The translations under genes were made by a program, and so were the position numbers. A model generated the notes under the pieces. The model was given only the letters and a program-made list of their open reading frames with translations. It made no database searches and was not told the origin of the DNA. A DNA stretch of 64,000 bases from a virus (lineage: Duplodnaviria; Caudoviricetes), in IMG/VR virus record IMGVR_UViG_3300042258_000071, positions 32,001-96,000 of that record; one strand, 5' to 3'. How positions within the stretch are numbered: the first letter of the stretch is position 1; each line of letters begins with the position of its first letter. Below are positions 19,741-27,818 of the stretch, piece after piece.

Positions 19741-20095
19741 CGTACTATTCCATAAAGGTTCGGTATCTCCTTCATGCGCAGCATAACCTGCAGCTATGGC
19801 TTTCACCATAGACTAGATCATATCTTTACCTTGAGTCATATGACTGTTAGGTAACTCCCATTTCGAGACCCCTTGGTCCTACAGGCTGACAAAGCCTTGA
19901 TCGTTGAACGTTCATCTTAAGGATGTCTCACGACAGTCTTAAGACACTTCGCTGCTGGTTGCCCAATCTTCACATTTTTCAAACTATCACGCTTGTCGTT
20001 ACCAACTACGTTGTAGTATGTAAAGCTCTAAGGGGGTTCTAGCAATTAGAGAGCATTCACTTAAAACTTTTCAGTTAAAAGCGGACAAATAGTTT
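19741..20095 (-). ncRNA. Group I intron (IA-like, 355 nt, no ORF) in the RNAP beta-like gene
   Basis: 5' exon ends in U (GAC GAU) and the intron ends in G. P AAUUGCUAGAA, Q AACCAGCAGC, R GUUCAACGAUCA, S AAGAUAUGAUCU; GAAA-capped P2 and P9; P7.1/P7.2 hairpins. Splicing gives in-frame TQDD-GKRLSF. Confidence 0.9.
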
Positions 20096-23403: not shown

Positions 23404-23967
23404 ATGAACGTTTGGAATTGGATTAAATCTTTCACTAAACAAAATGAGGGGGTCCCAAAATTTATCGCTAATCCTCATAACCAAAAAGTTCCTGAGCAAG
23501 AAATTTTTCAGGAACTTGAGGCCGTAACTTCTCAGTTCCCACTAATACTCAAAGCCGATGGTGATGTTTCAAAACGTTCACCGATATATCTCACTCTTCA
23601 ACAGGCGAATTTTACTGAAGATGATCTTGGAAATCCTGTATCTTCCAGTGTGATCTTGGAAAAGATGGGGAGGGTCCCTATTTTAAATATATTTGATCAA
23701 ACAGATATAATCATTTCCAAAAATTACCTCAAGATTGGAAAGTTGGCAAATGATTCATTGCTTATTCGAGTCAATTGCCGAATCAAACTTGAGGGTTCTA
23801 ATGAAGACATGTCTGATCACCTTACGATGGTGGTCCCTCCCTCCCGTAAAGAGGACGTGCACGATGTTCTCATTACATATGCCGGTAAGCATCTGGAAGG
23901 TGGAATCTCCGACATCAAATGGGAAAAACGCGTTCTTAACGTTCTTAAAGCATTACCCACAACTTGA
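23404..23967 (+). CDS. Hypothetical early protein
   Basis: 187 aa; AAGGAG RBS. Confidence 0.75.
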   Translation: MNVWNWIKSFTKQNEGVPKFIANPHNQKVPEQEIFQELEAVTSQFPLILKADGDVSKRSPIYLTLQQANFTEDDLGNPVSSSVILEKMGRVPILNIFDQTDIIISKNYLKIGKLANDSLLIRVNCRIKLEGSNEDMSDHLTMVVPPSRKEDVHDVLITYAGKHLEGGISDIKWEKRVLNVLKALPTT

Positions 23968-23970
23968 AAC

Positions 23971-24006
23971 ATACAAGCATGGTGGGATTTCCCACCATGC
24001 TTGTAT
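23971..24006. terminator. Long palindromic stem-loop
   Basis: ATACAAGCATGGTGGGA-TT-TCCCACCATGCTTGTAT. Confidence 0.7.
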
Positions 24007-24042
24007 TTATGCATTTGCAGCACCAATGACGTATGGAGAACT

Positions 24043-24300
24043 ATGGGTTTAATGTCATATAAGGAGAGTGACTCAACAGACTCTGATAGTTATGACCTTA
24101 ACTTGAGGATATCTGAGCTTATATTGTTTTACAAATTTTTAATGAAATATCCAACACTAAACCCTTCCATTGATCAGTATATCCATGATTGTGAAAGGAT
24201 CGACTCTTTGAAATTTATCATCCCATCTGAACTCTATAATCATGCGACAGCCATATTAAATAACGTGGCGCAGGAACATGGGTTCTTCTTCGAAAGGTAA
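24043..24300 (+). CDS. Small hypothetical protein
   Basis: GGAG upstream of ATG 24043/24052. Confidence 0.6.
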   Translation: MGLMSYKESDSTDSDSYDLNLRISELILFYKFLMKYPTLNPSIDQYIHDCERIDSLKFIIPSELYNHATAILNNVAQEHGFFFER

Positions 24301-24306
24301 TCTCTT

Positions 24307-25224
24307 ATGTCAGCATTTTCAACCATGTCTAAAGTAGCAGCTGGTGCAACCGCATTCACCGGGGTCTATTATGGCTTCAAAGTCGGAAGTTATATTTTTA
24401 AAGAAAATACGTTCCGGAGTATGTCAAATGAAATATACTGGGAGAATCTTAAGAAAATATTAACAATAATATTTTCCGCATCATCTCGCACGGGGGTGAC
24501 TCTTCCCGATGGATTATGGGTTGAAACCATCAAACTTGCGTGGATAAGGAGTCTTGGAGATGGATTTGCGCCTAAAACCAACCCGTCAGTGCAAGAACAG
24601 CGGGTAATTGCGGTTACGCTCGTCGAGGAAATCTTCGAGAAAATCATCGAGAAAATTGAGCTTAAGAGTGCATATGAGAAAATCAGTTATGCCCATAAGG
24701 GTCTCTCTAACACATCGTGCCCAGCACCCCATGGGTGGCAGGGTTTCATCGATGAGTTCTTTACCGAGAAGGGTTATGAGATTCCTGTAAATGAGCAAGG
24801 CCCTTATTGGGGGCAGCTTGAGTTCATTTATGAGATCCTTGTAGCTGCAACACCGCGTTCGCAGGTCGTGCTAAACGATGGTGCTTGGGAGGGGATCTTG
24901 GGTATGGTTCTTGAAAATATGACACCTGAAGATCAGGAACTTCATGCCGATCCAAGGAGTCATCGATTGCTCCACATTGCTCTTATTGAGCATGTCTACG
25001 AACGCTTGATCAAAAATGTCGGTCTCAATGTTGCGTATAACCGAATTTGCTATGCGCATAAAAATCTTAATGACAAGTCTTGTCCGGCACATTGCGGCTG
25101 GGATAAGTTTATCGAAACCTTCTTTGAAGAGAAAGGTTTGAAATTCGAATCTGACGACGACATATCACCCCCATCAAACAAAGGTCTTCATGAGACCGTA
25201 TCACGAGGAGGTTCCTCATCATGA
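24307..25224 (+). CDS. Membrane-anchored protein with a tandemly duplicated ~120-aa domain
   Basis: N-terminal hydrophobic stretch, then YAHKGLSNTSCPAPHGWQGFIDEFFTEKG and YAHKNLNDKSCPAHCGWDKFIETFFEEKG. Confidence 0.75.
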   Translation: MSAFSTMSKVAAGATAFTGVYYGFKVGSYIFKENTFRSMSNEIYWENLKKILTIIFSASSRTGVTLPDGLWVETIKLAWIRSLGDGFAPKTNPSVQEQRVIAVTLVEEIFEKIIEKIELKSAYEKISYAHKGLSNTSCPAPHGWQGFIDEFFTEKGYEIPVNEQGPYWGQLEFIYEILVAATPRSQVVLNDGAWEGILGMVLENMTPEDQELHADPRSHRLLHIALIEHVYERLIKNVGLNVAYNRICYAHKNLNDKSCPAHCGWDKFIETFFEEKGLKFESDDDISPPSNKGLHETVSRGGSSS

Positions 25225-25409
25225 ATTTTGCATTCTGGTTCGTCTTTCTCGGACTGATGCCTGCCCTCGCCATTTTCATCTTTGAGACAGTGTGCTGGGT
25301 ATTGCGGCGCATCAATCGTGACGATGCGAATGACGATGTCGAACATGCCGATGAGGCATATTTAAAAGAGTCCCTACTCTTGAAGAATTCTACGTTCTTC
25401 AGAAAATAG
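25221..25409 (+). CDS. Small membrane protein
   Basis: 62 aa; N-terminal TM; ATGA overlap with the previous gene; GAGGAGG RBS. Confidence 0.65.
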   Translation: MNFAFWFVFLGLMPALAIFIFETVCWVLRRINRDDANDDVEHADEAYLKESLLLKNSTFFRK

Positions 25410-25416
25410 GGAACCC

Positions 25417-25449
25417 ATATGGGGGACCCTTTCTTAGGGTCCCCCATAT
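25417..25449 (+). terminator. Stem-loop with U-tract
   Basis: ATATGGGGGACCCT-TTCTT-AGGGTCCCCCATAT followed by a T run. Confidence 0.75.
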
Positions 25450-25475
25450 TTTTTTTCAATGGTATGATACGAGAG

Positions 25476-25670
25476 ATGCAGCTCGTCCACTTCTATATGT
25501 ATCGATCCGACATGACACCTCAAATTCTTGCGGTCCATATCGCTTTTATATTGCTGTTTCTAGGATTTATAGGATTCTTTGTAGCAATGATTTTTTACGC
25601 ATATAAGAGCGGTGATATAGAAGAGTTTTACACTGACCTTCTCAAGTTCTTTTTCCTTAGAAAGACATAG
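25476..25670 (+). CDS. Small membrane protein
   Basis: One long hydrophobic segment; start uncertain (25476 or 25512). Confidence 0.5.
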   Translation: MQLVHFYMYRSDMTPQILAVHIAFILLFLGFIGFFVAMIFYAYKSGDIEEFYTDLLKFFFLRKT

Positions 25671-25674
25671 AGAT

Positions 25675-25706
25675 AGATAAGAGAGGGGGTGCCCCCTCTC
25701 TTATCT
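25675..25706. terminator. Long palindromic stem-loop between convergent genes
   Basis: AGATAAGAGAGGGGG-TG-CCCCCTCTCTTATCT. Confidence 0.75.
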
Positions 25707-25709
25707 CTA

Positions 25710-25898
25710 TTATACATTTTTAAGAGGATTTTGATAGGTCATCTGAATCATCATAAGGTCTATCATATCACTAAACGTTCCCTTTAAGAACTTACCTTCA
25801 GGAGTTAGAAATGATCTTGGACTTTCCATGTATTCAGACAGTTCACGTGTAGTGTCTTCACCCCAAATGTAATTCACAGATGAAGTATCCCCATCATA
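25710..25898 (-). CDS. rpoC: Virion RNA polymerase beta'-like subunit, exon 2 (missing from the ORF track)
   Basis: 63 codons: YDGDTSSVNYIWGEDTTRELSEYMESPRSFLTPEGKFLKGTFSDMIDLMMIQMTYQNPLKNV*. Completes the catalytic ADYDGD motif. Confidence 0.88.
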   Translation of the reverse strand, partial: YDGDTSSVNYIWGEDTTRELSEYMESPRSFLTPEGKFLKGTFSDMIDLMMIQMTYQNPLKNV

Positions 25899-26261
25899 CC
25901 TTTATATTCCATAAAGGATCGGTCGCCCCTTATGCGCAGCATAACCTGCAGCTATGACTTTCATCATAGAGTAGACTATATCTTCACTATAGGTTGTGTG
26001 GTGTAACCCTTAAGTGTCTCCTATTTCGGGTCCCTTGACCCTACTCCCCGCTACGGGATAGTCGTTGAACGTTCACCATACTACTGTCGTCACGACATGT
26101 ATAAGGCGCTTCGCTGCTGATCATCCATTGTAACATTTGATACCTTTTTGAACTATCACGCTCACCTTTTCAGGTCACGTTGTAGTGTATCAACTTTAGG
26201 ACTTTCCAGCAATTAAGGAGATATCATCTTAGCTATTTCTAACTAAGTGGACTATCAATTA
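25899..26261 (-). ncRNA. Group I intron (IA-like, 363 nt, no ORF) inside the RNAP catalytic motif
   Basis: Exon ends GCU GAU and the intron ends ...AAAGG. P AAUUGCUGGAAA, Q GAUCAGCAGC, R GUUCAACGACUA, S AAGAUAUAGUCU; P3 UCUCCU/AGGAGA; a plausible P1 with U.G at the splice site. Confidence 0.92.
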
Positions 26262-27818
26262 ATCAGCTCCAAGCCCCCCAAGGGCACTTGTATGAACAAT
26301 CGTACTATCTAAAAATCCGTCATTAGCATCTAAAGATGGATAATGTGGATACTCAGCATCGTCCTCACCTGTAATGAGGTCATACAGTTTAACGGTGCGA
26401 GAGTTGGATGTTGAGTTAAGGTGTATTTTAGCAGGATAACATGATCCATCTTCAATAGCAGGGTACCGCGTCACCATAGCGTATTTATTAAATGTGGCGA
26501 TATACGTTGCAAGATATACGATCTCAGCCCATGTGATGGGGCGGAGTTTTGTACGATCAACTTTTTTACCTAAATTCTTCTCAAGATCGCCAAGACTCCT
26601 AACGATGGAAATTCGATCACCTTGATCATATACCAAGCAAAGGTAGAAAGGTTTCTTATCACGATTATAAATAGTGACAGCTGACCGTCGAACATCTTCA
26701 TTTGAGAACCGAGTTAACCACTTGTTAATACCTGTCCTTGTAACGAATTTATCTTTTTCTAATTGAGAGATTTCTGTATATACAAGATTTAAAGTTTTAG
26801 GATCAGTGAGAGGAACATTAACCTCATCACTCTCTCCTAAGATGGGGGTGAAAAACGCTGTCTTAAGATGGTGGATAACGAAGGGCTCCATCCCTTTGCA
26901 GGATTGATAAAGTCCTACCATAACTTCATCAGGTTTAAGAGACCGTGGATCATCAGGAGAATCCATCACATAACTTGCAGCACTTAGAACATTACGAGTT
27001 CCAAATGCCACTGAACGTGATCCATACCCACCATTTTGCATGAATCCTCGTTTACCAGTTTGGAAGTTCTCAAGGTAATCATAAACTTCAATAGCTTTCT
27101 CTTGAAGTTTATATCGAACTTGATTATAAATAGGGTTAACTGTTTTTTCTGGAATAGATAAACTTAAAGATATCATACTCCGATAGAGCTTGTTTATTTC
27201 ATCTTGCACCATGCGCGCACCAGACTCGATTCGAATATCTCGAAATCCTGCAGGAAGAACGATGTACTTATTAATAAGAGAAACCTCTCGATACTGATTT
27301 AAGAGGGTGACTCGGTTTTCACGTTTGAGGGATTCTGTTAAAGGAAATTCAATTTCATGATAGTGCGATAAGAAGAACGCATAACCTGTTCCGGCATCTT
27401 CAACATCCTCTGGATCCCCAACAACACGTTCAAAATTTTTTATCTCAGAGTTAAATGTTGCATAAACACGCCCTGCTAAAATGTCGTCATACAGAGAACT
27501 TATTTTGATGAGATTTTTATAAATAATAGGAGCGATGATGTTACTGCTTAGAGGGAGGAACCCAAATTTCTTCATGCGATCATCTGAACCCACTGCCCCA
27601 AAGATTTCTTCTGAGAAGAGACCGTCTTTATGAAAGAGCGTTGTTGATGGTTCTAAGACATCAAATGACGTTACCGCTGCAATAATATTTTTCTGAACAA
27701 AGTCATCTACATCCATAACGCGGATGTTAAAAGGTCCATAACCGGAATTTTTCATATTCGATAAATCTTCAAGCCCTTTAGACCGATTCACAATATCGAA
27801 TGGAATTTGCTGTACCAT
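26262..27818 (-). CDS. rpoC: Virion RNA polymerase beta'-like subunit (phiKZ gp180-like), exon 1 (spliced product about 581 aa)
   Basis: DGLFSEEIFG, VLPAGFRD, GKRGFMQ, GTRNVLSA and VTRYPA; ends GLGAD at the intron. Confidence 0.9.

Follow-up and report, generated by a model that had tools for sequence, protein, structure and literature searches.

Results

The window, by which we mean the whole 64,000-nucleotide stretch that was analysed, belongs to a phage genome of 236,443 bp with 39% G+C, direct terminal repeats, and phiKZ-like genes, and no tRNA genes were found in the whole genome. On the minus strand of the window, a beta'-like ORF at 27818-26259 ends in GLGAD followed by a stop, as the preliminary description of this DNA had reported, and a 62-residue frame opening with YDGDT lies 363 nt downstream. 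[quoted passage not shown] It matches PHROG 2986 with an E-value of 5e-131 over profile positions 6-484, is about 32% identical to gp180 homologs in 314 phage records, and also matches the RNAP beta' chain of AR9 (7s01_d, E 2e-5). The downstream frame takes up positions 485-538 of the same 539-position profile without a gap, so that the two together cover 6-538.

Excision of 26261-25899 (minus strand), with a U as the last exon base and a G as the last intron base, gives an open frame of 581 aa in which the motif reads GAD/YDGD (the slash marks the splice junction). Of the 13 cuts between such a U and such a G that reopen the frame, this one alone restores the full DxDGD; the other 12 were dropped because they break the motif. 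These ends are preferred also because they are marked by P1, P10, and P9.0 (Table 1), and the 363-nt excision proposed at the outset is thus borne out. The hidden second exon proposed with it is real, and the 63 codons ascribed to it are 62 residues and a stop. When aligned with intronless homologs, it matches their C-termini, as the preliminary description would have it. Between exon 2 and its counterpart in the closest relative, the metagenomic locus L008, 24 of the codon changes are synonymous and 11 non-synonymous, and identity is 90% at second positions but 48% at third ones; judged by these changes, exon 2 is under purifying selection.

The spliced product would be a 581-aa phiKZ gp180-like virion RNAP beta' subunit carrying DYDGD. 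Exon 2 has no start codon of its own ahead of the motif, and its separate translation was rejected on this ground. The earlier claim that the Asp triad depends on splicing is supported. The expectation that gene callers would miss the active site holds as well, as the protein database entry for this gene breaks off at GAD after 519 aa. Proteins of the exon-1 cluster come from 4 contigs. Packaging of Gp180 in the virion has been shown for phiKZ (PMC10612078), and by homology the subunit encoded in the window would be packaged too.

Table 1. Features of the interrupted gene, the intron, and the other introns of the genome (window positions unless marked as genome positions)
Feature	Position	Strand	Details
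Exon 1, virion RNAP beta' N-terminal subunit (phiKZ gp180 homolog)	26262..27818	-	519 codons
Group I intron	25899..26261	-	363 nt, phase 0, without ORF; RF00028 88.3 bits
Exon 2	25710..25898	-	62 residues and stop; starts YDGDT
P1	26250..26264	-	exon GAU plus UA with guide UAGUC (26254-26250)
Loop L1	26259-26255	-	5 nt; 1.1-1.6 kb endonuclease gene here in relatives
P10 guide AUA	26253..26255	-	pairs with UAU (25898-25896), first three bases of exon 2
P2	26246-26229	-	within the P2-P6b part, 26069..26246
P3, 5' strand	26221-26216	-	
P4	26211-26207 with 26119-26115	-	
P5 with long extension, P6a, P6b	within 26069..26246	-	
P6	26114-26112 with 26071-26069	-	
Catalytic core	25973..26065	-	P7, G-binding site, P7.1, P7.2, P3 3' strand, P8
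P7	26063-26059 with 25978-25974	-	100% of cells paired; compensatory changes
G-binding pair	G26063-C25974	-	bulged C26064; flanking A26065-U25973
P7.1	26057-26047	-	
P7.2	26041-26028	-	covaries
P3, 3' strand	26022-26017	-	
3' part	25899..25971	-	P9.0, P9, P9.1, P9.2, terminal G 25899
P9.0	CU 25971-25970 with AG 25901-25900	-	covaries across homologs
Terminator-like hairpin	25681..25702	.	just after exon 2, between convergent genes; from a consensus scan only
Sister intron, virion RNAP beta	19741..20095	-	355 nt, at QDD/GKR; RF00028 71.3 bits
Intron, non-virion RNAP beta	genome 10922-11364	+	after FGT; above Rfam cut-off
Intron, topoisomerase II large subunit	genome 104658-105020	+	after DAD; above Rfam cut-off
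Intron, non-virion RNAP beta'	genome 231171-231553	+	phase 2, in RNPSI; above Rfam cut-off

The group I identity asserted from the letters alone agrees with the covariance model: Rfam RF00028 matches 26270-25952 with 88.3 bits (E 3e-21), well above its cut-off of 50, and the strand folds better than its shuffles (z -3.1). The intron opens with an in-frame TAA codon, its longest stop-free frame is 42 codons, and stops are present in all three frames. Ribosomal bypass and stop read-through were rejected on account of these stops together with the complete ribozyme core. At the level of sequence and covariation, 26261-25899 is confirmed as a group I intron with a complete, covarying core.

The elements of this core can be placed base by base (Table 1). 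P1 has five base pairs, with a U.G pair (U26262.G26252) at the 5' splice site, and the pairing of P9.0 sets G25899, not G25900, as the last intron base. Eight homologous introns were aligned with MAFFT without fitting to the structure. Pairing holds in 92% of the cells of this alignment, and both partners have changed in 36 of its 61 pairs, where shuffles give 19.5 +/- 2.5 and slid controls 3-8. These counts are supportive and not to be read as probabilities, since the structure was drawn on the window's own sequence and the sequences are kin. P3, P6, P7, and P8 are paired in all cells and show compensatory changes, and P4 is paired in 90%. A script found P1, P7, the G-binding site, and P9.0 to hold in 11 of 12 related introns; the remaining case is Goslar, where it took a wrong S-like copy and where the right pairing is visible in the sequence. 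Among these 12 introns the guide covaries with the end of the exon (GUC for GAU, GGU for ACU). Subgroup IA is recognized by two additional hairpins, P7.1 and P7.2, that lie between P7 and P3; the intron has both, and we place it in IA as IA2-like, an assignment that does not separate IA2 from IA3.

The same motif is interrupted at several positions elsewhere in the family. Of 113 clusters of homologs (P0001-P0113), 62 have it intact, in 50 the frame ends within or beside it, and the last one holds an intein-like insert; a share of broken clusters of about 45% is indicative only, as the query was the truncated exon. By the position of the stop, 16 clusters end at D, 5 at DxD, 18 at DxDG, 5 at DxDGD, and 6 otherwise. 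Judging from these breaks, the DxDGD codons are a hotspot, and active-site codons are where mobile introns are expected to insert (PMC12908238). The cluster with the intein-like insert (P0038) carries a long in-frame insert that starts with Cys in the motif and is probably an intein. Inserts in the same motif that RF00028 misses lie at L013:5000-5290, L014:5330-6300, and L019:3955-4210 (Aeromonas phage ZPAH34); their last base is G, the exon before them closes with U or C, and their R/S-like elements form a P7 of another kind, so that they probably represent another group I subgroup. The preliminary description had also singled out the Tyr of the motif. The residue is there, and it is common in the family: the 62 intact homologs include 29 with DFDGD, 17 with DYDGD, and 14 with DHDGD, and we dropped it as a special feature.

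The site is likewise occupied in phiKZ, Goslar, Vibrio phage 2 TSL-2019, and four metagenomic loci (L008, L009, L010, and L012). All seven of these relatives carry mutually homologous ORFs of 360-495 codons in L1, typed in L008 as an HNH/NUMOD4 gene. L008, which comes from an independent sample, is the closest relative, with 77% protein identity, an 89% identical core, the same intron boundaries, and an L1 of 1143 nt. The window's intron holds no homing endonuclease, with 5 nt in L1 and a longest frame of 42 codons, and no homolog of the relatives' L1 endonucleases was found in the whole genome. Nor did the genome yield a copy of the presumably lost endonuclease that might act in trans: a single HNH gene passes the Pfam cut-off, a free-standing 409-codon ORF with helix-turn-helix repeats between two large genes at genome 97498-98724 (+), and it is unrelated to the L1 endonucleases. 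Because seven of the eight same-site introns examined carry the gene, parsimony makes it most likely that the endonuclease was lost from L1; the intron tree is poorly resolved, with support too weak to order events. Such a loss is compatible with the viability of phiKZ orf179 deletion mutants (bioRxiv 2025.11.23.690004). A search for related loci among viral contigs found no relative.

Four further group I introns make five in the genome, all without an ORF (Table 1), and four of the five follow GAU and use the guide GUC. The sister intron in the virion beta gene follows an Asp-Asp pair, the insertion site described for the PhiPA3 gp210 intron (PMC11620839); no close relative of this beta gene was found, the best match having 53% identity. 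In P6a/P6b, identity of the window's intron to the introns in the topoisomerase and non-virion beta' genes of the same phage is 87-100%, but to its L008 orthologue only 43-73%; with this orthologue it is 80-100% in most other stretches of the alignment. Over 26119-26075, its identity to those two introns is a patchwork with exact blocks of 25-50 nt, and a block of 50 nt that spans the variable P8 is identical in the two. It is possible, if somewhat doubtful, that the five introns evolve together by ectopic gene conversion and that some may reach new sites without an endonuclease through recognition of GAU by the guide; with one orthologue only, the direction of exchange between introns cannot be set. 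Gene conversion among introns, as these blocks suggest, would be the only mildly novel point of the analysis.

Among the phiKZ-like genes of the genome are homologs of PhuZ, gp50, gp55, gp68, gp71/73, and gp74. For chimallin (ChmA), the hallmark gene of the nucleus-forming phages (Chimalliviridae), no match to phiKZ gp54 was found in the genome; a 540-aa gene at genome 228215-229834 (+) holds the syntenic position of phiKZ chimallin and has no family or structure match. The beta' and beta genes, neighbors in phiKZ, are set apart in the window by several small genes (23404-25670). The product of one, at 24307-25224, has an apparent internal duplication, and two genes tested in this segment gave no PHROG match.

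Discussion

The interruption of the beta' gene is very probably a functional self-splicing group I intron, descended with loss of the endonuclease from the mobile intron found at the D/xDGD site in phiKZ (gp180/gp179) and its relatives. For the steps of splicing we follow what is established for group I introns. Free guanosine at the G26063-C25974 pair would attack the bond after GAU that is marked by the U.G pair, and exon 1 would then attack after G25899, aligned by P10 and P9.0. The ligated mRNA would give the 581-aa active subunit with DYDGD, while unspliced RNA, with a stop at the first intron codon, would give a 519-aa product with one of the three Asp residues. The intron would have arrived by endonuclease homing, with later loss of the gene from L1, and may have been retained because imprecise deletion in a catalytic motif would be lethal. 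It could thus be a tolerated passenger that selection keeps competent for splicing.

Could the intron have been domesticated as a switch, in which the rate of splicing, set by GTP, Mg, or translation state, determines the amount of active virion RNAP in concert with the four other ORF-less introns? The placement of five intact ORF-less introns within or next to conserved motifs, in the two polymerases as well as the topoisomerase, would suit such a role, condition-dependent splicing has been discussed for other phage introns (PMC10914365), and the core is better conserved in DNA than exon 2 when compared with L008 (89% vs 73%). We nevertheless consider a switch improbable, as the need to splice is enough to explain the conservation of the core, and as the presence of the intron is patchy, with 62 of the 113 clusters intact and near relatives of phiKZ such as PA02 intronless. 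The breaks also fall at four or five positions in the motif, which is what repeated homing into a conserved target predicts.

The chance that no splicing occurs, and that the RNA is a relic within a natural split, a bypassed or read-through gene, a pseudogene, or an assembly artefact, appears to us close to negligible. Jumbo-phage RNAP subunits do occur naturally split (PMC7598289), and a long-read RNA sequencing study of phiKZ infection saw no evidence of splicing, in the conditions it used, for the introns predicted at gp56, gp72, and gp179 (PMC10914365), which is the main caution for the self-splicing reading. Against a lack of splicing, exon 2 offers no start codon in frame ahead of its Asp residues, each of the three frames of the insert contains stops, and every pair of the catalytic core is intact and covarying. 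Exon 2 is also under purifying selection, the same boundaries recur in an independent sample, and the exon-1 cluster is found on 4 contigs.

A self-splicing intron at this place has consequences for annotation, given that gene callers, and RefSeq in the case of phiKZ, let the subunit end with the first Asp of the catalytic triad and overlook exon 2, and that nearly half of the homologs in the protein collection are cut in the same way. At a site already known, the locus may also represent the homing cycle in one of its late stages: a relative at 77% protein identity has an HNH gene in L1, and the window's phage has a loop of 5 nt. By extension from the PhiPA3 work (PMC11620839), an ORF-less intron at a homing site could shield the gene from the endonucleases of relatives. 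Finally, a compact ribozyme of 363 nt would be a convenient substrate for splicing tests at the phiKZ site.

Comparison with known systems

The closest known case is gp180/gp179 of phiKZ (NC_004629.1), where our mapping places an intron of 1443 nt at about 187788-186346 (-). The two share the host gene, the insertion point GAD/xDGD, phase 0, GAU followed by TAA, and a homologous core with 61% identity, which scores 92 bits against RF00028 in phiKZ; blastn of the window's intron also finds phiKZ 186379-186526, just downstream of gp180 (E 5e-6). In phiKZ, gp180 ends in GAD and a stop, followed by gp179, the group I core, and an exon starting FDGDT that is unannotated in RefSeq; the gene's C-terminal sequence in the intronless phiKZ-like phage PA02 is that of phiKZ exon 2. 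The differences are the HNH gene gp179 in L1 (1105 nt, against 5 nt here), the motif (DFDGD, against DYDGD), and the gene order, as gp180 and gp181 are adjacent in phiKZ whereas the window's gene stands head to head with a large tail protein gene, one gene apart. The gp180/gp179 and gp55 introns of phiKZ have been cited (PMC11512511), and Gp180 has been described as containing DFDGD (PMC10612078), which the RefSeq frame of gp180 lacks. In the accessible literature, we found no paper that words the phiKZ intron as cutting the motif after its first Asp, and introns go unmentioned in Yakunina 2015 and de Martin Garrido 2021. In phiKZ gp55-gp56.1 (L022:17924-20762), the non-virion beta' gene is interrupted just before DFDGD, and with gp55 and gp56.1 joined the motif falls at 417-421, as numbered in the cryo-EM paper (PMC8287921).

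Other phages differ by larger steps. Gp205/gp206 of Escherichia phage Goslar (NC_048170.1) holds an intron at the same site, the core of which RefSeq marks as Intron_gpI, but this one is 2044 nt long with an ORF179-like gene, and its core is only 46% identical. The putative group I intron of PhiPA3 gp210, which has been characterised (Birkholz et al. 2024, PMC11620839), similarly interrupts a virion RNAP subunit at conserved Asp residues; the subunit is beta, not beta', and the effect on competing phages needs an endonuclease, which the window's intron lacks. In two cultured phages, Vibrio phage VP4B and Aeromonas phage ZPAH34, the DxDGD codons of this gene also hold short inserts that lack an endonuclease, though at other positions (after DxDGD and after DxDG), and the ZPAH34 insert has no RF00028 match. 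AR9 and Staphylococcus phage MarsHill have multiple introns in RNAP subunit and gyrase genes within one genome (bioRxiv 2020.12.14.422802; PMC12350094), a likeness between distant phages that is drawn at the level of genes. With a homologous phiKZ intron at the identical phosphodiester, its listing in the literature, and the RefSeq mark in Goslar, the arrangement is unsurprising. Read from its sequence, the window's intron constitutes no new kind of system and adds one more example, lacking the endonuclease, of an element already known.
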